From NCBI GenBank assembly GCA_041486775.1, contig JBGPMB010000001.1, forward strand, positions 1,505-65,504: a DNA stretch of 64,000 nt. The letters are read 5' to 3'. The notes beneath the pieces are model-generated. The model did no database searches. It worked only from the letters and a program-made list of their open reading frames with translations, and was not told the DNA's origin. Source of the stretch: Candidatus Eiseniibacteriota bacterium (GTDB taxonomy: Bacteria; Eisenbacteria; RBG-16-71-46; SZUA-252). The translations under genes were made by a program, and so were the position numbers. Every line of letters begins with the position of its first letter. Positions within the stretch are counted from its first letter, which is position 1. Shown here in pieces: positions 2 through 32,373 of the stretch.

Positions 2-1303
2 AATGCGGGCCGCTATTTCCGGACGGTTCGCCTCGCGCCTGAGATCACGCCGCAGCATCTCCTTAATCTCGTGGGGGACAGCCGCGAAGCGATCGACATC
101 CCGCGCGAGGAGGAGGAGCACTACTCGAGGCTCATCCGCGAAGCCTTGGCGCTCTTCGGCGCGCATCATTACCGCGAGTACCACTTCCTCTACACGCTGA
201 GCGACCACGTGCCCTATTTCGGGCTGGAGCACCACGAGTCCAGCGACGACCGCGGTCCGGAGCGCTCGTTGATCGACGCGGACCAGGAGCTCCGCATGGC
301 CGACCTCCTGTCGCACGAGTTCGCGCATTCCTGGAACGGCAAGTACCGGCGTCCCGCCGACCTGACGACGCCGAACTACGAGGCGCCGATGCAGACGGAC
401 CTGCTCTGGGTCTATGAGGGGCTGACCCAGTATCTGGGCTGGATCCTCGCCGCGCGCAGCGGGCTCCTGAACCCGGAGCAGGCGCGCGCCTACCTCGCGG
501 AAACCGCCGCCTACCAGGACAAGGAGCCGGGGAGGGCGTGGAGACCGCTTCTCGACACCGCGATCTCAGCCCAGTTCCTCTATGAAAGCGACTGGGCGTG
601 GACCGGCTGGCGACGAAGCGTCGATTTCTACGACGAGAGCCTCCTCTTCTGGCTCGAGGCGGACGCGATCATTCGCTCGGAGAGCAAGGGCCAACGATCC
701 CTCGACGATTTCTGCCGCCGGTTTCATGGCGGCGCGAGCGGGCCGCCGATGGTGAAGCCGTACACGTTCGACGACGTCGTGGCGGCGATGAACGAAGTCC
801 AGCCCTACGACTGGCGGGGATTCTTCAAGGAGCGGGTCGATGCCGTGCAGGCGCGCGCGCCTCTGGGAGGGATCACGCGGGGAGGGTGGAAGCTCACGTA
901 CGCCGATTCCGCTTCCGCCTATCACTCGAGCCTCGAAAAAGCGCGGAAGCGCTTCGATTTCAGGTACTCGCTCGGCCTCTTTCTCGACGACCAGGGAGTG
1001 GTCGTGGATGCCTGGCCCAAGACCCCGGCCGCCCTGGCCGGGATCTCACCCGGGGTGAAGCTGATCGCGGTGAACGGCAGGCAGTGGACGGAAGACGTCA
1101 TGCACGAGGCGATCCGCGCGGCCGCGCGTTCCCGCGCTCCGATCGAAATCCTGGCCAAGAACGGGGAGTTCTACGCGACGTACAAGATCGACTACCGGGG
1201 GGGAGAGCGTTACCCGAAGCTCGTGCGCGTCGAAGGCTCGCCGGATCTCCTGGATCAAGACCTGGCACCCAGGGTCCCGCCCGGGGGCGAGACGAAGCAT
1301 TAG
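2..1303 (+). CDS. M61 family zinc metallopeptidase (glycyl-aminopeptidase-like) with C-terminal PDZ-like domain. The 5' end lies outside the window.
   Basis: HEFAHSWNG (HExxH) zinc motif at about residue 80 of the visible part. M61 proteins are about 600 aa with the motif near residue 260, so the N-terminus is upstream of position 1. The frame is open to the window edge. C-terminal GISPGVKLIAVNG is PDZ-like. Confidence 0.8.
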   Translation, partial: NAGRYFRTVRLAPEITPQHLLNLVGDSREAIDIPREEEEHYSRLIREALALFGAHHYREYHFLYTLSDHVPYFGLEHHESSDDRGPERSLIDADQELRMADLLSHEFAHSWNGKYRRPADLTTPNYEAPMQTDLLWVYEGLTQYLGWILAARSGLLNPEQARAYLAETAAYQDKEPGRAWRPLLDTAISAQFLYESDWAWTGWRRSVDFYDESLLFWLEADAIIRSESKGQRSLDDFCRRFHGGASGPPMVKPYTFDDVVAAMNEVQPYDWRGFFKERVDAVQARAPLGGITRGGWKLTYADSASAYHSSLEKARKRFDFRYSLGLFLDDQGVVVDAWPKTPAALAGISPGVKLIAVNGRQWTEDVMHEAIRAAARSRAPIEILAKNGEFYATYKIDYRGGERYPKLVRVEGSPDLLDQDLAPRVPPGGETKH

Positions 1304-2043
1304 GGAGCGTGGATTCTCCGCCGCGCGAAGTCCACGGCCTTCCGTGCGGTCCAGAAGCCCAGCGCCGCGCCCGCCACGACGTCGCTCGACCAGTGCTCGC
1401 CGTCGCGCATCCGAGACCAACCCACCAGACCCGCCAGCGGATAGACCACGTAGGGGACCCACCGGGCCGAAGTCTCCTTGTCGATGGCGGCGGCGATCCC
1501 GAAGGCGAGCGCCGTGTGTCCCGAGGGAAACGAGGCGTTTCCCGAGAACGGACGGACCACGCCCGGGTCGCCCGGTGTCTGGTACGGCCGCGCCCGGCCC
1601 ACCGCGAGCTTCACCACGCTGACCGCGACGGATGCGGCGACGGCGCCTTCGGCGATTCTCACCAGGGAAGCGGCGCGATCGGAACGATGCTCGAAGGCGT
1701 CCGCGGCGCGAACCACGAGGAACGCGGGGACCAGGTAGAGCGGGTTCCCGAGTCGCTCGCCGGCGTGCGACGCGCCCACCGCGAAGGCCCCGTTGTTCTC
1801 CGGCGCCTCCTCGGCGGCCCAATGGTCCAGGCGCGTCGCGAGCGCGACCGAGGTCACGGTGGCGGCCGCGAACCAGGCGTCGCCGCGCGTGAAGAGCGGA
1901 TGGCCGGATGCCGCGCCGGCGGACCACGTGTCGGGGGACCGTGGGAGTGCCGCGGTGGAGTCGGAGGGGTTCGCCGAAGCCTGCGTGGCGGAGCACACGC
2001 AGGCGAGGGCGAGGATCGGAAGAACGGACCGGAGTCGGCGCAC
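1300..2043 (-). CDS. PAP2 family (acid phosphatase / lipid phosphatase) protein, secreted
   Basis: The three PAP2 signature motifs are present: KLAVGRARP, PSGHT and SRMRDGEHWSSDVVAGA. There is an N-terminal signal peptide (ILALACVCSA). The gene lies 35 nt downstream of the feoB-associated gene on the same strand. Confidence 0.85.
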   Translation of the reverse strand: MRRLRSVLPILALACVCSATQASANPSDSTAALPRSPDTWSAGAASGHPLFTRGDAWFAAATVTSVALATRLDHWAAEEAPENNGAFAVGASHAGERLGNPLYLVPAFLVVRAADAFEHRSDRAASLVRIAEGAVAASVAVSVVKLAVGRARPYQTPGDPGVVRPFSGNASFPSGHTALAFGIAAAIDKETSARWVPYVVYPLAGLVGWSRMRDGEHWSSDVVAGAALGFWTARKAVDFARRRIHAP

Positions 2044-2077
2044 GCTCCTGGAACCCCGCGGAGCGGGATCCTGCTCC

Positions 2078-2257
2078 CTAGGAATCGGGATTCGCCTTCG
2101 CGGGGCGCTGCCCCATCCGCGAGTGCACCATCGCCGCGCAGCTGTCGCACCCCTTCCGGGTGCGCCGCTTGACGAGCCAGCGGCGGAAGAGCCAGGCGAC
2201 TGCCGCCAGGGCGGCGAGCGCTACGATCAGGTCCTGCTGCCAGCCCGGCATCCTCAT
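2078..2257 (-). CDS. FeoB-associated Cys-rich small membrane protein
   Basis: A 59-aa protein, MRMPGWQQDLIVALAALAAVAWLFRRWLVKRRTRKGCDSC..., with one TM helix, a basic stretch and a GCxxC motif. Its ATG overlaps the feoB TGA (ATGA), which suggests translational coupling. I shortened the ORF-track entry 2078..2401 to this internal start. Confidence 0.6.
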   Translation of the reverse strand: MRMPGWQQDLIVALAALAAVAWLFRRWLVKRRTRKGCDSCAAMVHSRMGQRPAKANPDS

Positions 2258-4497
2258 CCGAGCCCCAGCGCTTTCCCGCCCTGGAAGACCGCGAAGGAAG
2301 CGACCCAGGCGAGCGCGTTCATCATCAGCACCATGAAGATGGGCCAGCGCCAGGAGTTCGTCTCCCGGCGCACGACCGCGACTGTGGACATGCACTGGCA
2401 CGCCAGCACGAAGAACACCATGAGGCTCACCGCCATGAGCGGCGAATACGCCCGCTCTCCCGTCCGCGGATTCTCCGCGTGGCGGAGCTTCTCCCGGAGT
2501 GATACCGAGGTCTGGTCGGCGTCCCCGAGGTTGTAGACCGTCGCCATGGTGGAGACCATGACTTCACGGGCGGCGAAGGAGGAGAGAAGCGCGATCCCGA
2601 TCTTCCAGTCGAATCCCAGCGGCGCGATGGCGGGCTCGATGAGACGTCCCGCGCGGCCGGCGAAGGAGTCGCGGAGTGAAACGCCGGCGATCTCGTTCCG
2701 GAGCTGTACTACCTCGGCTCCCTGTGCGTTCGCGGCGCCCCGTTCCACCGCCTCGAGCCGCTTCTCCAACGGCTTCACCTCCGCGGTCTTCGGGTAGGAC
2801 GCCAGGAACCAGAGCACAATCGAGACCGCGAGGATTACCGTCCCGGCCTTCTGCACGAAGAGCCCCGCGCGGTCCCGAACGGTGAGGAGCACGGAACGCC
2901 ATGAGGGCACACGGTAGGGAGGCAGCTCCATCACGTAGAGCGGTCGGGGCCCCCGCAGCGCCGTGCGCTTCAAGACCCACGCCACGAGCACCGCCGCCAG
3001 GATTCCCATCATGTAGAGCGAGAAGAGCACGAGACCCGGGAGGCTCAGGAAGCCGAAGACCATTCTGTTCGGGATGAAGGCGCCGATCAGGAGCGCGTAC
3101 ACGGGCAGCCTCGCGCTGCAGGACATGAAGGGCGCGATGAGGATGGTGGTGAGCCGGTCGCGACGGTTGTCGATGGTTCGGGTCGCCATGATCCCCGGGA
3201 TCGCGCACGCGAAGGACGAGAGGAGCGGGATGAAGGCGCGCCCCGACAACCCGACGCCGCGCATGAGGCGGTCCATGATGAAGGCCGCCCGGGCCAGGTA
3301 TCCCGAGTCCTCCATCAAGGCGATGAAGAGGAAGAGGATCGCGATCTGGGGCACGAACGTCACCACGGCGCCGACCCCCGCGATCGCCCCGTCCACGACG
3401 AGCGACCGGATGGGCCCCGCCGGCAGCAGGGGCGCTAAGGCGCGGCCCAGCGCGGAAACGCCGGCGTCGATGGCGTTCATGATCGGGGTCGCCCAGAGGA
3501 ACATGGACTGGAAGATCACGGCCATCAACGCGGCGAAGAGGATCGGGCCCAGGATCCGGTGCGTGAGCACGCGGTCGATGCGCTCGCGCACCGAGGTCTC
3601 GGGCTTGAGCCGGAGCGTGGAGCGCCGGATCAAGTCCTCGATGGTCCGGTAATGGCCGATCGGCTCGTGCGAGCGCCACTCGGGGATCTCCCGGTCGAGG
3701 CGCGCGCGAAGGGCCAGGACGTCGCGGCGAACGGGCTGCGGCACCGCGCGCATGAGCGAGTCGTCCTCCCCCTCGTCCAGGAGGAGCGCCATGGCGACAT
3801 GGAAGCGGCTCAAGCTCGCCAGCGGTCCGCCGCCGGGAAGCACCCGCGCGAGATTCTCCACGGCGGCGCGCATCGGCTCCGGAAGGGTGCGCGTCACCGC
3901 GCGCGGGGGCGCGACCTCCCGGTCCATCGCGAGGAGCAGCTCGTGCATCCCGCTTCCGGTGCGCGCGGAGATGGGAACCACCGGCGCGCCGAACGCCCGC
4001 TCCAGGAGTGCGGCGTCGACGTCCAGCCCTTCATTCTTCGCCGTGTCCATCATGTTGAGGGCGATCACCACCGGCCGGCCGATCTCGATCAACTGCATGC
4101 AGAGGTAGAGCTGCCGATCCAGGCAGGTGGAATCCAGGACGAGCAGCGTGAGGTCGGGGAGCGGTGTGGAGGCCTGCACGCCCAGGAGAACGTCCCGCAC
4201 CACGACCTCGTCGGGGGAGCCGGGGCGGAGGCTGTACGTGCCCGGGAGGTCGAGCACTTCCACCGTTCGGCCCGAGGGAAGCGGCACGAAACCCGCCTTC
4301 TTCTCCACGGTCACGCCCGGATAGTTGGCGACCTTCTGCCTCAACCCGGTGAGCTTGTTGAAGAGGGTGGATTTCCCGCAGTTGGGCCCGCCGGCGATCG
4401 CGACCAGCTTGCGCCGGGTGCGGCGTCCCGGTTCCGGGTGGCGTTCCGCGTCCTTCAGAGAGGGCTGGGCGGTCGCCAGATCAGATGGGATCGACAT
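2254..4497 (-). CDS. feoB: Ferrous iron transporter FeoB (N-terminal GTPase plus permease domain)
   Basis: It has a G-protein P-loop (GGPNCGKSTLFNKLTG) and DxxG (VLDLPGTYSL), followed by a multi-TM core of about 450 aa, for 747 aa in total. It sits in an operon with feoA. Confidence 0.95.
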   Translation of the reverse strand: MSIPSDLATAQPSLKDAERHPEPGRRTRRKLVAIAGGPNCGKSTLFNKLTGLRQKVANYPGVTVEKKAGFVPLPSGRTVEVLDLPGTYSLRPGSPDEVVVRDVLLGVQASTPLPDLTLLVLDSTCLDRQLYLCMQLIEIGRPVVIALNMMDTAKNEGLDVDAALLERAFGAPVVPISARTGSGMHELLLAMDREVAPPRAVTRTLPEPMRAAVENLARVLPGGGPLASLSRFHVAMALLLDEGEDDSLMRAVPQPVRRDVLALRARLDREIPEWRSHEPIGHYRTIEDLIRRSTLRLKPETSVRERIDRVLTHRILGPILFAALMAVIFQSMFLWATPIMNAIDAGVSALGRALAPLLPAGPIRSLVVDGAIAGVGAVVTFVPQIAILFLFIALMEDSGYLARAAFIMDRLMRGVGLSGRAFIPLLSSFACAIPGIMATRTIDNRRDRLTTILIAPFMSCSARLPVYALLIGAFIPNRMVFGFLSLPGLVLFSLYMMGILAAVLVAWVLKRTALRGPRPLYVMELPPYRVPSWRSVLLTVRDRAGLFVQKAGTVILAVSIVLWFLASYPKTAEVKPLEKRLEAVERGAANAQGAEVVQLRNEIAGVSLRDSFAGRAGRLIEPAIAPLGFDWKIGIALLSSFAAREVMVSTMATVYNLGDADQTSVSLREKLRHAENPRTGERAYSPLMAVSLMVFFVLACQCMSTVAVVRRETNSWRWPIFMVLMMNALAWVASFAVFQGGKALGLG

Positions 4498-4738
4498 CGA
4501 TGCGGTCCGCCTCCGAGCTCCGGATGGAGAAATGGGTGCCGCGAAGCCGGAGCTCGATCGGGTCGCCCATCGGGGCGCGCCGCACGAGCGTGACCGTCGT
4601 TCCTGGAACGAAGCCGAGCTCCATGAGACGGTGGAGAAGCTCCGGCTCGCCGCCCACCCGACGGACGACGGCGCGGGTTCCCGCTTTGAGCTCGCCCAGC
4701 TTCCGGGTTCGCCGCTCGGTGCGGCCGCGCGGGGTCAT
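4481..4738 (-). CDS. feoA: FeoA family protein (SH3-like)
   Basis: An 85-aa protein with the FeoA pattern L..L..G.......TTVTLVRRAPMGDPIELRLRGTHFSIRSSEADRIDV. Its ATG overlaps the stop of the DtxR-like gene (ATGA). Confidence 0.85.
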   Translation of the reverse strand: MTPRGRTERRTRKLGELKAGTRAVVRRVGGEPELLHRLMELGFVPGTTVTLVRRAPMGDPIELRLRGTHFSIRSSEADRIDVDPI

Positions 4739-5310
4739 TCGGCCACTCCTTCCCCGAACTTACCGGCGAGCCCCGGAAAGGTTTCCGCGAGGCAGCGCCC
4801 GCTCTTGCACACCGGGCACTCCTTGGAGGTCTGCTTGCTCGCGCACCGGTGCTGGTAGGCGCGGAAGGCGTCGCGGAAGCGCTCGGCCGTGGGATCGTCG
4901 GATCCGATGAACGCGGTCAGGCGAAGGAACTGGATCATCGACTCGGGCCCGACCAAATGCTCGATCATGCACGCGTCCTCGTAGGCGATCTCCTCGGGGA
5001 CGCGAAGGATGTGGGTGAAGAACATCGTGAGGACCTGGCGGTTGCCCTCGGTTTGGCGAGCGAGACGCCGTCCATCCTCCGTCAGCTCGACGCATCCATA
5101 GGGCTCGTGGGTCACCAGTCCGCGCGAGGAAAGCGAGCGGAGCATGCCCGTGACGCCGCTCTTGGATACCCCCAGGCGATCGGCGATATCACCGACCCGG
5201 GCGTGTCCTTTTTCCTCCTTGAGGCCGGCCACCGCCTGGAGATAGTGGGCCATGGAGTGCGTCAACTCTTTGCCGCTGAATCGTTTCCAGATCTCCATCG
5301 ACGCCTCCAC
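4735..5310 (-). CDS. DtxR/IdeR/MntR-family metal-dependent transcriptional repressor with a C-terminal Cys-rich tail
   Basis: The HTH and metal-site region (HYLQAVAGL...ARVGDIADRLGVSKSGVTGMLRSLSSRGLV) and the dimerisation region match the DtxR family. The C-terminus (HRCASKQTSKECPVCKSGRC) replaces the usual SH3-like domain. Start is GTG at 5310; an alternative ATG lies 4 codons in. Confidence 0.85.
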   Translation of the reverse strand: MEASMEIWKRFSGKELTHSMAHYLQAVAGLKEEKGHARVGDIADRLGVSKSGVTGMLRSLSSRGLVTHEPYGCVELTEDGRRLARQTEGNRQVLTMFFTHILRVPEEIAYEDACMIEHLVGPESMIQFLRLTAFIGSDDPTAERFRDAFRAYQHRCASKQTSKECPVCKSGRCLAETFPGLAGKFGEGVAE

Positions 5311-5321
5311 GAACCGGACAC

Positions 5322-5348
5322 AGCATGCTGAATAAAGTTCAGTATGCT
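5322..5348. promoter_or_regulatory. Imperfect palindrome in an AT-rich island upstream of the DtxR-family gene; candidate metalloregulator operator
   Basis: AGCATGCTGAATAAAGTTCAGTATGCT has arms AGCAT-n-CTGAA / TTCAG-n-ATGCT. It lies 12-40 nt upstream of the regulator start, in the only AT-rich stretch of the 5311-5400 promoter region. Confidence 0.35.
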
Positions 5349-5403
5349 TAAATATCGGCTACGGGGAAGCAATGTCAAGGGAGACTTGAGTACCACGTGG
5401 CCT

Positions 5404-5688
5404 TTACCTGTGCTCCAGGTAATACAGCGCGCCGAACGCGAGTCCCAGGAGGATGAAGGGAAGCGCCAAGCGTCGCGCGCATCGCCAGGGCTTCGTCCAA
5501 TCCGCCGTCGCGAGGAAGACCAGGAGCGTCGGCGCCATCGCCGCGATGGAGAGCTGGAAGATGTGCGCGCCCGTGCCTTCGTCCGGCTGGGGCGGCTGGT
5601 TGTATCCGATGAGTATCGGACTCAGCGCCATGAGAGGTAAGACGATGAGGACCCTGCCGGCGACGCGATTGACTTGCTGCGTGGTCAC
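5404..5688 (-). CDS. Hypothetical small membrane protein
   Basis: 94 aa with 2-3 hydrophobic helices. It overlaps the end of the upstream gene by 4 nt. It is called only from the ORF and its operon context. Confidence 0.4.
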   Translation of the reverse strand: MTTQQVNRVAGRVLIVLPLMALSPILIGYNQPPQPDEGTGAHIFQLSIAAMAPTLLVFLATADWTKPWRCARRLALPFILLGLAFGALYYLEHR

Positions 5689-6392
5689 AACCCGAACCAG
5701 ATCTTGCGGTGAAAGGGGCTCAGCTCGTGCCCGATCAGGAACGAGGATTCCGGGTCCGCGTTTCCCACGAAGAGCCGGGCTCCGCTCACGTCCTCGGGGA
5801 GATCGAAGACCAGCTCCGTGAGATAGGACTCGCCGGGAACGAGCGGGCGGGAGAGCGGCGTCGACGGGACGCCCGCGTCCCCGAGGGCGCGCGCGCCCGC
5901 CGGCGAGAGCTCGAAGCGCCGGCCGGTGGCATCCACGATGTAGACCTGCCGCGGATTCGGGTAGAGCGGCGCGTCTTTCGGGCGCATCGGCGAGATGGTG
6001 CTCTCGTCGAACCAGGTCTTCAGCGAGATGACGTAGAAGGTCCCGGCCGCGCGCACGGGCCGCGCGTGGTTTCCGAGCGTTTTCGACGTGACGACGCGCT
6101 CCACCGAATACGCCAGGTGGCAGTCGATCTCGCAGAAGTACTTCTTCGCGCCGTGGGGGAGGACCCGCTCCTGGCTCGTGAGTGAGGCGCCGAGGAGCAG
6201 TGTCGCGTATCCTGCCGGGATCGCGAGCAGGGCGATGGCCGCCCCGAGGCGGACCCTCGCGTGATTCCGGGCGACGCCGTAGACGAGGACCGCCGCGGAC
6301 AGCATCCCGGCCAGGATGGAGCCGAGGAACAAGAGGACGACGATCGGAGCGTACGAGGGCATGAGCACCATGAGAAGCACTTTATGATACAA
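5685..6392 (-). CDS. Hypothetical membrane-anchored protein (N-terminal TM helices plus soluble domain with a CxxxC motif)
   Basis: 235 aa, with an N-terminal hydrophobic segment and a YFCEIDCH motif. It is divergent from the TauE gene. I could not recognise a family by eye. Confidence 0.5.
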   Translation of the reverse strand: MYHKVLLMVLMPSYAPIVVLLFLGSILAGMLSAAVLVYGVARNHARVRLGAAIALLAIPAGYATLLLGASLTSQERVLPHGAKKYFCEIDCHLAYSVERVVTSKTLGNHARPVRAAGTFYVISLKTWFDESTISPMRPKDAPLYPNPRQVYIVDATGRRFELSPAGARALGDAGVPSTPLSRPLVPGESYLTELVFDLPEDVSGARLFVGNADPESSFLIGHELSPFHRKIWFGL

Positions 6393-6424
6393 AGTTCATC
6401 CTGTCAAGCCCCTCTCGTAGGCGC

Positions 6425-7195
6425 GTGCACCCCTTAGCGCTTCCGACCCTCCTCGTCCTGATCGCCGCCGCCTTCTTCGCGGGCGCGGTGGACGCCGTCG
6501 GAGGGGGCGGGGGTCTCATCATGGTCCCGGCCCTGCTCGCGGCCGGGCTCCCGCCGCACCTGGCTCTCGGTACCAACAAAGGGCAATCCATATTCGGGTC
6601 CATGGCGGCGACGGTCCGCTTCGCGCGCGGGGGACTGGTGGACGGGCGCATCGCGCGAGTCACGTTTCCGGCGGCATTCGTGGGCGCCCTGGCCGGATCG
6701 GCGCTCGTGCTGGTACTGAAGCCCGAGGTGCTGCGCCCGCTCGTGCTCGTTCTCCTCGTGGCGGCGGCCGTTCTCGTCACCGTCATGAGGCCGCGATCGA
6801 AGGAGGACTCTCGAGGCCCGAGGGCGGGTGCTATGCGGATCGCGGGCTCGATCGCCCTTCTCGTGGGGGTCTACGACGGGTTCTTCGGCCCGGGATCGGG
6901 GACCTTCTACATCGCCGGATTCGTGGGGCTCCTGGGGCTCTCGATGGCGCGCGCCAGCGCGGACGCCAAGGTGGCCAACTTCGCCTCGAACCTCGCGGCC
7001 ATGGTGCTCTTCGCGCACCGCGGCGTCATCGTGTGGGCGATCGCGCTCCCGCTGGCGGGAGGCCAGATCCTGGGAGGCTTTCTCGGCGCGCACTTCACCG
7101 TGCGTCGAGGTGACCCGCTCGTGCGCGTGGTGGTCTTGGCCGTCGTGCTCGCGCTCGTGATCAAGGTCGGGCGCGATCTCTACCTGGCGCGGTAG
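6425..7195 (+). CDS. TauE/SafE (DUF81) family sulfite/anion exporter-like membrane protein
   Basis: A two-fold repeated 4-TM architecture with the glycine-rich motifs (GGGGGLIMVPALL and GFFGPGSGTFYIAGF) typical of TauE/SafE. Confidence 0.85.
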   Translation: MHPLALPTLLVLIAAAFFAGAVDAVGGGGGLIMVPALLAAGLPPHLALGTNKGQSIFGSMAATVRFARGGLVDGRIARVTFPAAFVGALAGSALVLVLKPEVLRPLVLVLLVAAAVLVTVMRPRSKEDSRGPRAGAMRIAGSIALLVGVYDGFFGPGSGTFYIAGFVGLLGLSMARASADAKVANFASNLAAMVLFAHRGVIVWAIALPLAGGQILGGFLGAHFTVRRGDPLVRVVVLAVVLALVIKVGRDLYLAR

Positions 7196-32157: not shown

Positions 32158-32314
32158 GGCACGCACGCTGGGCTCTGAACCACGAATCCAAAGTTAAGTT
32201 ATTTCGCCGCTTGGGCTTCCTCATCCCGAACTCGTCCCAGGACGAGTGATTCATTACGTACTTCCCACGAGAAATGACGCGCGGCCATGAGCACTTTGAA
32301 CTTGCGGTGTGGTC

Positions 32315-32334
32315 GATATTACGATATCGTAATA
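32315..32334. promoter_or_regulatory. Perfect 20-bp palindrome ATATTACGATATCGTAATAT; candidate MarR operator
   Basis: It is an exact reverse-complement palindrome in a short AT-rich island about 40 nt upstream of the MarR start codon. Confidence 0.5.
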
Positions 32335-32373
32335 TACGAAACCGTAGTATTGGAGTCGGACCCCGAACCGAGG

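Follow-up and report, generated by a model that had tools for sequence, protein, structure and literature searches.

Regulation of Feo ferrous iron uptake systems is poorly known outside proteobacteria and Firmicutes. The stretch of DNA considered here, 64,000 nt of the Candidatus Eiseniibacteriota contig JBGPMB010000001.1 and called the window below, carries a feo operon that begins with a gene for a DtxR-family regulator. This raises the question of which metal the regulator senses, where it acts, and what its four-cysteine tail contributes. We analyzed the minus strand from 1300 to 5400 of the window. Five open reading frames (ORFs) lie there, all on that strand, in the order regulator, feoA, feoB, small membrane ORF, and PAP2-family phosphatase, which agrees with the gene order and shared strand given in an earlier note made on this DNA from the sequence alone. 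Our analysis indicates that the locus is probably an autoregulated ferrous iron uptake operon with one promoter, an Fe2+-type repressor, an operator of three half-sites, and an extra site of four cysteines (Cys4).

The regulator gene (4735-5298, minus strand) encodes a protein of 187 amino acids (aa) with the two domains of the DtxR/MntR family and a C-terminal extension. Pfam placed PF01325 (Fe_dep_repress) at residues 11-68 (50.7 bits, cut-off 26) and PF02742 (Fe_dep_repr_C) at residues 73-131 (40.3 bits, cut-off 27). FeoB (feoB, 2254-4497, minus strand, 747 aa) scored 516.6 bits against TIGR00437, for which the cut-off is 315.65, and FeoB_N, Gate, and FeoB_C were identified in it by Pfam. 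With an N-terminal G domain, Gate, and FeoB_C in FeoB, and with FeoA adjoining, the locus has the makeup of a Feo system, and the Pfam and TIGR00437 matches bear out the proposal of a feo operon headed by a DtxR-family regulator. The most likely start of the regulator is the ATG at 5298. A Shine-Dalgarno GGAGG read from the sequence (5304-5308, minus strand) lies 5 nt upstream of it, and the resulting N-terminus, MEIWKRF, is common to homologues; both features favor this codon over the GTG at 5310 that had been chosen previously. The protein also extends 18 residues past its last cysteine, farther than the earlier note had it.

A protein search returned 454 homologues of about 180-200 aa, and those listed were 56-95% identical to the query. 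The source databases labelled them Eisenbacteria, Latescibacteria, or Gemmatimonadota, with generic protein names only. A scan of one genome per species yielded 80 loci, mostly from Candidatus Eisenbacteria and Gemmatimonadota, and the closest relatives (85-95% identity) were metagenome-assembled genomes (MAGs) of Eisenbacteria. A feoA gene followed the regulator on the same strand in 79 of the 80 loci, and feoB in 76. The four loci without feoB were three contig ends, one of which also cut off feoA, and an internal deletion in locus L028. The regulator subfamily is strictly feo-linked and always stands ahead of feoAB where the sequence allows.

At positions 650-1000 of L028, only about 56 codons of feoA are left, joined to a short fragment of the FeoB G domain (...VVDATNLERQLYL) with unrelated sequence behind it. 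The break is either a deletion or a misassembly, and L028 is the only locus without intact feoAB after the regulator.

Pfam found no FeoA/SH3 domain (PF04023) in the regulator, which confirmed the absence of an SH3-like domain suggested previously, and structure matches stopped at about residue 135-150. The closest solved structure by sequence was Bacillus subtilis MntR (profile E 4e-20), with DtxR/IdeR at an E of about 1e-7. MntR was also closest by fold (Foldseek TM about 0.8 over about 135 aa), and structures of DtxR and IdeR matched as well. In the profile alignment, D8, E11, H77, E99, E102, and H103 of B. subtilis MntR were paired with H18, Q21, R87, C110, E113, and H114 of the regulator, all six of which were invariant in 75 family sequences. 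The binuclear manganese site of MntR was not kept, with D8, E11, H77, and E99 replaced by H18, Q21, R87, and C110. We take H79 of the DtxR ancillary site to align with MntR H77, and thus with R87 of the regulator; given this match, the first ligand of the ancillary site is lost, an invariant Arg being in its place. MntR residues D8, E99, E102, and H103 correspond to M10, C102, E105, and H106 of the DtxR iron site (PMC4805248). Mapped through the MntR alignment and this correspondence, three of the four residues of the primary iron site of DtxR are kept (C110, E113, and H114), and the Met is replaced by H18. Judging from Q21 and R87, the second manganese site of MntR is lost in the family. Because the Cys-Glu-His triad is kept and the second manganese site lost, we infer that the regulator would have a single regulatory site, tuned to Fe2+ rather than Mn2+.

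Alternatively, the regulator could be a manganese sensor, that is, a true MntR, with FeoB importing Mn2+ like FeoB2 of Porphyromonas gingivalis. The best NCBIfam matches of the regulator were indeed MntR models, its closest solved structures are MntR proteins, and JGI names homologues 'Mn-dependent DtxR family'. However, the cut-offs of the MntR equivalogs were missed widely (NF008273, 81.5 versus 153 bits; NF003025, 75.7 versus 138 bits), invariant H, Q, R, and C take the place of four of the six ligands of the binuclear manganese site, and FeoB passes the cut-off of the feoB equivalog. The DtxR equivalog NF053665 also was below cut-off (24.7 versus 290 bits). The change of E99 to Cys gives the iron-type ligand of DtxR, and Cys108 is crucial for binding of Fe(II) by the P. 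gingivalis regulator PgMntR (PMC4805248). We consider a manganese sensor quite unlikely, and favor the Fe2+-type repressor.

Residues 64-69 in the wing of the helix-turn-helix (HTH) domain (window 5092-5109) were also conserved, with H64, Y67, and G68 invariant and C69 mostly so (HE[P/R]YGC). This stretch may hold a further metal ligand.

The tail motif (4792-4845, minus strand) comprises C152, C161, C164, and C169, followed by L170. C161, C164, and C169 were invariant in the 75 sequences and C152 and L170 nearly so, and the tail follows the pattern C-x(4-9)-C-x2-C-x(3-4)-C-L-[R/A/K/H]-[E/D]. The first spacer is 12-17 residues long in four Gemmatimonas-type loci, giving an overall range of 4-17. 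The commonest tail in the family is CAEHAPGACDLCGATCLRESL, and the consensus is C..H.PGxCxxCGxxCLRES. The four cysteines were present together with HxxxH[YF] and C[ML]xEH in all 79 complete regulators from the 80 loci, so the tail cysteines that had drawn attention to this protein are genuinely conserved.

In the alignment, MntR stops at about regulator residue 150, just before the first tail cysteine, where the extension starts. AlphaFold, run with the 75-sequence alignment (mean pLDDT 83), predicted a helix at residues 136-153, a loop at 154-169, and a short helix at 170-173, and it predicted no beta-strands or hairpins in residues 150-187. Scanned by itself against Pfam at E values up to 10, the tail had no match, zinc ribbon included. 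The tail had been called zinc-ribbon-like, but a zinc-ribbon fold is not supported: the tail has one CxxC and two single cysteines, no predicted hairpins, and no Pfam domain. A profile of the tail was searched against 1.84 billion representative proteins and gave 12 matches, of which 10 of the 11 examined were family members or fragments of them; no other domain context for the tail was found among these 11. One of them, P0252, aligned over the Cys motif only. The twelfth match was a 1278-aa protein aligned in four short stretches.

The tail may be an addition to the MntR scaffold that forms a second site for a metal or cofactor, holding either Zn(Cys)4 or an iron-sulfur (Fe-S) or iron center. 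The tail could be a structural zinc site as in Fur that carries no signal, leaving the regulator a one-input iron repressor. Cys4 sites often bind structural zinc; moreover, the short tail is not part of the MntR core and is predicted to be a loop, and the variable first spacer (4-17 residues) suits a simple metal clasp. A structural zinc site fits less well with the single CxxC knuckle and the lack of predicted hairpins, and the strict and exclusive link between the tail and the feo operon hints at a role tied to iron. We regard structural zinc as quite possible, at somewhat less than an even chance.

More tentatively, the Cys4 tail could bind an Fe-S cluster or redox-active iron, as the FeoC motif does, and the regulator would then be a two-signal repressor. 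In gamma-proteobacterial FeoC, a winged-helix protein, a [4Fe-4S] cluster is bound by a CX4CX2CX5C motif, and changes in the two central cysteines (C61S and C64S) give a phenotype like that of FeoC deletion, so that these residues are needed for full Feo function. The motif of Escherichia coli FeoC lies at its end and is followed by LRE. Alignment of the tail with the FeoC C-terminus by hhalign was weak (28% probability, P 6e-4) and is a lead only. If the tail does hold such a center, one protein would combine free Fe2+ at a DtxR-like site with Fe-S or oxygen status at the tail, the regulator would be the first Fe-S-bearing member of the DtxR/MntR family, and it would amount to a functional fusion of 'FeoC' with a feo repressor in phyla without FeoC or a described feo regulator.

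The regulator without an SH3-like domain and the separate FeoA directly after it had been read as the products of domain fission. A separate feoA ahead of feoB is, in fact, the canonical Feo layout. The feoA gene (4481-4738, minus strand) encodes 85 aa and matched PF04023 at E 5e-24. Among solved structures, FeoA matched stand-alone FeoA proteins at E 5e-14 to 1e-4 and the SH3 domain of the DtxR family at E 0.05 only, and the nearest solved relatives of the regulator are natively two-domain MntR proteins. Fission of an SH3 domain into FeoA was rejected on the basis of this MntR likeness and of the FeoA structure matches, which make FeoA a canonical stand-alone protein. Addition of the Cys4 tail to a two-domain scaffold is the simplest reading, and replacement of an SH3 domain by the tail is a possible alternative.

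In locus L070 (CAWGRN010000008.1, 2534-3325), the regulator ORF continues in frame to 263 aa and, beyond the Cys4 tail, ends in the C-terminal half of FeoA (...LMDLGLVPGTPVRYVRAAPLGDPLELVVRGTHLSLRRSEAGRVHVEPV). This ORF is either a natural fusion of regulator and FeoA that recreates the three-part layout of DtxR, or an indel error in a long-read MAG.

A site at which the regulator could act lies in the promoter region. The sole sigma-70-like match in 900-6000 consists of a -35-like hexamer, TTGACA (5373-5378, minus strand), and a -10-like hexamer, GATATT (5351-5356, minus strand), with a 16-nt spacer (TTGACA-16-GATATT, 5378-5351). Directly after the -10 box is a palindrome, AGCATaCTGAA-N5-TTCAGcATGCT (5322-5348, minus strand), in which 10 of 11 arm positions pair. 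No second copy occurs in the window even when 3 mismatches are allowed (0.00 expected from shuffles). It also lies within the lowest-GC 27-mer of the window (22% versus 67% overall), in keeping with its earlier description as an AT-rich patch. An exact-repeat search with a 6-nt seed missed the palindrome because the single mismatch cuts each arm into 5-nt exact runs; it was checked by script and pattern search instead.

Upstream of the regulators, the family has a common candidate operator, GTTAAG-N4-CTYAAC-N4-TTSAG, which consists of two overlapping inverted repeats with three half-sites. In 54 of 81 cases a regular expression for it had a match ahead of the regulator, and it occurs once in the window, where 0.01 matches are expected by chance. 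The core operator here, TTAAGCATACTGAACTTTATTCAG (5328-5351, minus strand), has the half-sites TTAAG, CTGAA, and TTCAG. Base 5351 belongs to both the -10 hexamer and the first half-site, and in close relatives, which have one T fewer, the two overlap by two bases. We also trained a position weight matrix (PWM) only on loci L010 and beyond, which are distant relatives. Conservation extended to positions that the selecting pattern left free; for example, G preceded TTAAG in 39 of 43, the second half-site was followed by C in 43 of 43, and position 21 was T in 37 of 43. The PWM identified a single site of at least 12 bits in the window, with 22.8 bits at 5324-5355, and thus no second operator site that would point to a regulon there. 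Across the family, 58 of 80 loci had a site no more than 220 nt upstream of the regulator, and other matches in 740 kb of loci were nearly all the opposite strand of the same sites.

The 10 closest relatives provided a phylogenetic footprint. TTGAC, GATA-TTAAG, the second half-site, and CTTTATTCAG were invariant in them, and the spacer and flanks varied. L001 and L003 have the long 11-nt arms in perfect form; in L002, L004, L007, and L008 the arms are degraded and the half-sites kept. The outer arms of L006 have changed in concert, with GTAGCG/CGCTAC in place of AGCATGC/GCATGCT. On these alignments, the palindrome appears as a lineage-specific, long-arm version of the second and third half-sites. 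Its proposed role as operator was upheld in that the palindrome region is the best candidate, is conserved, and overlaps the -10 box, but the conserved unit is the set of three half-sites rather than the 11-nt arms, and this unit reaches 3 nt further upstream than the palindrome. The core operator begins on the last base of the -10 box and extends to about +17, which is the position expected for repression by occlusion.

The long arms could instead act as a 5' RNA hairpin that affects mRNA stability or translation, and not as a protein-binding operator. They lie downstream of the -10 box and hence would be transcribed, the predicted fold has an energy of -17.2 kcal/mol (z -2.85), and the outer arms of L006 co-vary. 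However, it is the half-site sequence and not the pairing that is conserved, since most loci allow a 5-bp stem only and the left arm degrades in L002, L004, L007, and L008 with the half-sites kept. Rfam also gave no match in 900-6500 at E values up to 1, and thus no known riboswitch or leader. An RNA hairpin in place of an operator is unlikely, and the two roles are mutually compatible.

Taken together, the gene content, synteny, conserved residues, and conserved candidate operator that we observed suggest the following model of repression, metal identity, and tail function. The promoter TTGACA-16-GATATT would drive the regulator, feoA, feoB, and the small FeoB-associated membrane ORF, and probably, by read-through, PAP2 in this lineage. 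The regulator would be a dimeric, two-domain protein of MntR fold. When metal is plentiful, a divalent metal, most likely Fe2+, would bind at the single DtxR-like site (H18, C110, E113, and H114), and the metal-loaded regulator would occupy the three-half-site operator from the last -10 base to about +17. RNA polymerase would then be blocked, and both the regulator and Feo would be shut off. The Cys4 tail would either hold structural Zn(Cys)4 or form an Fe-S or iron site that adds an input of redox or Fe-S status. There is a precedent in P. gingivalis, where a FeoB-type transporter shares its operon with a DtxR-family regulator that binds upstream of this operon (PMC4805248).

Several points weigh against this model. 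Metal specificity and repression are assigned by analogy across the family, the closest solved relative is a manganese sensor, and source databases name the homologues 'Mn-dependent'. The tail was predicted with modest confidence (pLDDT about 65 by AlphaFold). The -35 and -10 assignment is a consensus match only. The third half-site is missing from 22 of the 80 loci, in which only the GTTAAG-N4-CTTAAC palindrome or variants are found; these remaining loci mostly keep the first palindrome alone, as in GTTAAGCATACTTAAC, or variants of it. Lastly, genes upstream on the same strand stop 26 nt short of the feo -35 box, so transcription may read through from them into the feo operon.

These upstream genes are two overlapping hydrophobic ORFs of 235 and 94 aa (5404-6392, minus strand). 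Neither had a Pfam or NCBIfam match. Among the close relatives, L002-L006 and L008 conserve the 235-aa ORF ahead of the operon.

Within the operon, the first four genes had been described as linked by ATGA overlaps. This was correct for the junctions of regulator and feoA, where the feoA start lies on the regulator stop codon, and of feoB and the small ORF (4 nt each). In contrast, feoA and feoB overlap by 17 nt (ATGTCGATCCCATCTGA), an arrangement common to relatives. Overlaps of 4, 17, and 4 nt point to translational coupling. The gap between the small ORF and PAP2 measured 34 nt rather than 35.

The small membrane ORF (2078-2257, minus strand) encodes 59 aa with one transmembrane (TM) helix, a basic stretch, and the sequence CDSC. 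Peptides of PF12669 after feoB are already known (PMC8749426). The small ORF scored 22.9 bits against PF12669, under the Pfam cut-off of 27, and has two cysteines only, versus the four-Cys motif described for PF12669 peptides (PMC8749426). At least 26 of 54 loci had a similar CxxC ORF in this position, with the TM-basic-CxxC layout kept.

The last gene (1300-2043, minus strand) encodes a 247-aa PAP2-family phosphatase with a GTG start and an N-terminal signal-like peptide. It scored 67.6 bits against PF01569 (cut-off 27.2), and in its translation the motifs KxxxxxxRP, PSGH, and SRxxxxxHxxxD are intact (KLAVGRARP, FPSGH, and SRMRDGEHWSSD), which places it in the superfamily. Matches to undecaprenyl-diphosphatase models were weak and below cut-offs. 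A convergent M61 peptidase gene overlaps the PAP2 gene by 4 nt. PAP2 could be a functional part of iron uptake, through remodelling of envelope lipids or release of phosphate-bound iron. In favor of this, PAP2 and the small ORF share a strand and are 34 nt apart, the stretch 900-6000 contained no terminator-like site, the gap had no unusual fold (z -0.18), and no sigma-70-like promoter was matched for PAP2 itself; the arrangement is also kept in four close relatives. However, by tblastn and a six-frame motif scan, only 4 of 54 loci (L001, L002, L006, and L008), all relatives at 85% identity or more, had PAP2 in the 3 kb that follow feoB; the other 50 did not. In L007 (85% identical) the small ORF is followed by the M61 gene without PAP2 between them, and in L004 (89% identical) the small ORF is present and neither PAP2 nor M61 was matched. 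The region from feo to the M61 peptidase gene shows the pattern of an insertion or deletion. By its distribution PAP2 appears to be outside the conserved module, a recent neighbor only, and a part for it in iron uptake is very improbable. Its co-transcription with feo in this lineage, as proposed in the earlier note, is not contradicted by the lack of a terminator or separate promoter and remains plausible.

Two other intergenic elements were seen in the window. A perfect 20-bp palindrome, ATATTACGATATCGTAATAT, at 32316-32335 lies within the second most AT-rich patch, between candidate ORFs, and looks like an operator for another regulator. An 18-nt hairpin, ACTCGTCCCAGGACGAGT, is identical at window 32230-32247, L044:3494-3511, L044:9305-9322, and L042:6267-6284. 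L042 and L044 are distant Eisenbacteria loci, and in L044 the hairpin forms the center of palindromes about 60 bp long, with arms (GTTAAsC..CCTCAAC) similar to the feo operator and with flanking genes unrelated to iron. The hairpin may be a phylum-wide repeated intergenic element. Operator-like matches in L042 and L044, beside genes for a T2SS ATPase and a TMEM260-like transferase, were rejected as regulon members because they are parts of this larger repeated palindromic element by genes unrelated to iron.

Control of iron and manganese importers by DtxR-family regulators is well established. In the literature that we searched, we did not find the combination of an MntR fold, a DtxR-type Cys site, an invariant Cys4 tail, a strict position at the head of feoAB, and this operator. 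DtxR-family members without SH3 are known, and the DtxR section of a 2024 family review contains no mention of a Cys4 module (PMC11672702). The regulator subfamily is undescribed, real, and conserved. It represents a compact, feo-linked repressor subfamily in soil and sediment phyla with few cultured members, and offers a system in which to study how a DtxR/MntR scaffold may be retuned from manganese to iron and a possible redox input through a second cofactor site. The operator motif can be used to predict iron regulons in genomes of Eisenbacteria and Gemmatimonadota.

B. subtilis MntR (PDB 1ON1, 2F5F, and 9C4C), at about 30% identity, resembles the regulator in having a winged HTH and a helical dimerization and metal domain without SH3, and it is a dimeric repressor of a metal importer. 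It differs in the metal ligands (D8, E11, H77, and E99 versus H18, Q21, R87, and C110) and in having no Cys4 extension; unlike MntR, the regulator is encoded at the head of feoAB. The DtxR/IdeR proteins of Corynebacterium and Mycobacterium are iron-type repressors of iron acquisition genes, and their C102, E105, and H106 are kept as C110, E113, and H114. They have an SH3-like third domain, whereas the regulator has no SH3, carries the Cys4 tail, and has His in place of M10 and Arg in place of H79. The half-site GTTAAG is similar to GTTAG in the DtxR/IdeR box. From the three half-sites, more than one dimer may bind the overlapping inverted repeats. PgMntR shares an operon with FeoB2, binds upstream, and has a site of mixed type with a Cys at the E99/C102 position; it has two fused FeoA domains and no Cys4 tail, whereas the regulator has a separate feoA and no fused domain (PMC4805248).

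The last comparison is with FeoC. Cys-rich 'FeoC-like elements' recur in feo operons, possibly by convergence, and their role is an open question in the field (PMC8749426). The regulator is not a FeoC by Pfam: it scored 19.8 bits against PF09012 (cut-off 21), and the match covered generic HTH residues 26-70 and not the tail. The position of FeoC, a small protein directly after feoB, is taken here by the PF12669-like membrane peptide instead. The HTH regions of the two proteins aligned by hhalign at 40% probability in a match that includes HEPYGC against EEPDGC, which sets the wing stretch 64-69 of the regulator against the first FeoC cysteine (EEPDGC56). FeoC has 78 aa, is encoded after feoB, and carries its cysteines in the HTH wing, whereas the regulator has 187 aa, is encoded before feoA, and carries them in the tail. 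Both are winged-helix proteins of feo operons with four clustered cysteines, in motifs that resemble each other only weakly (C-xn-C-x2-C-x3-5-C, followed by L-R-E in FeoC and in the family consensus).

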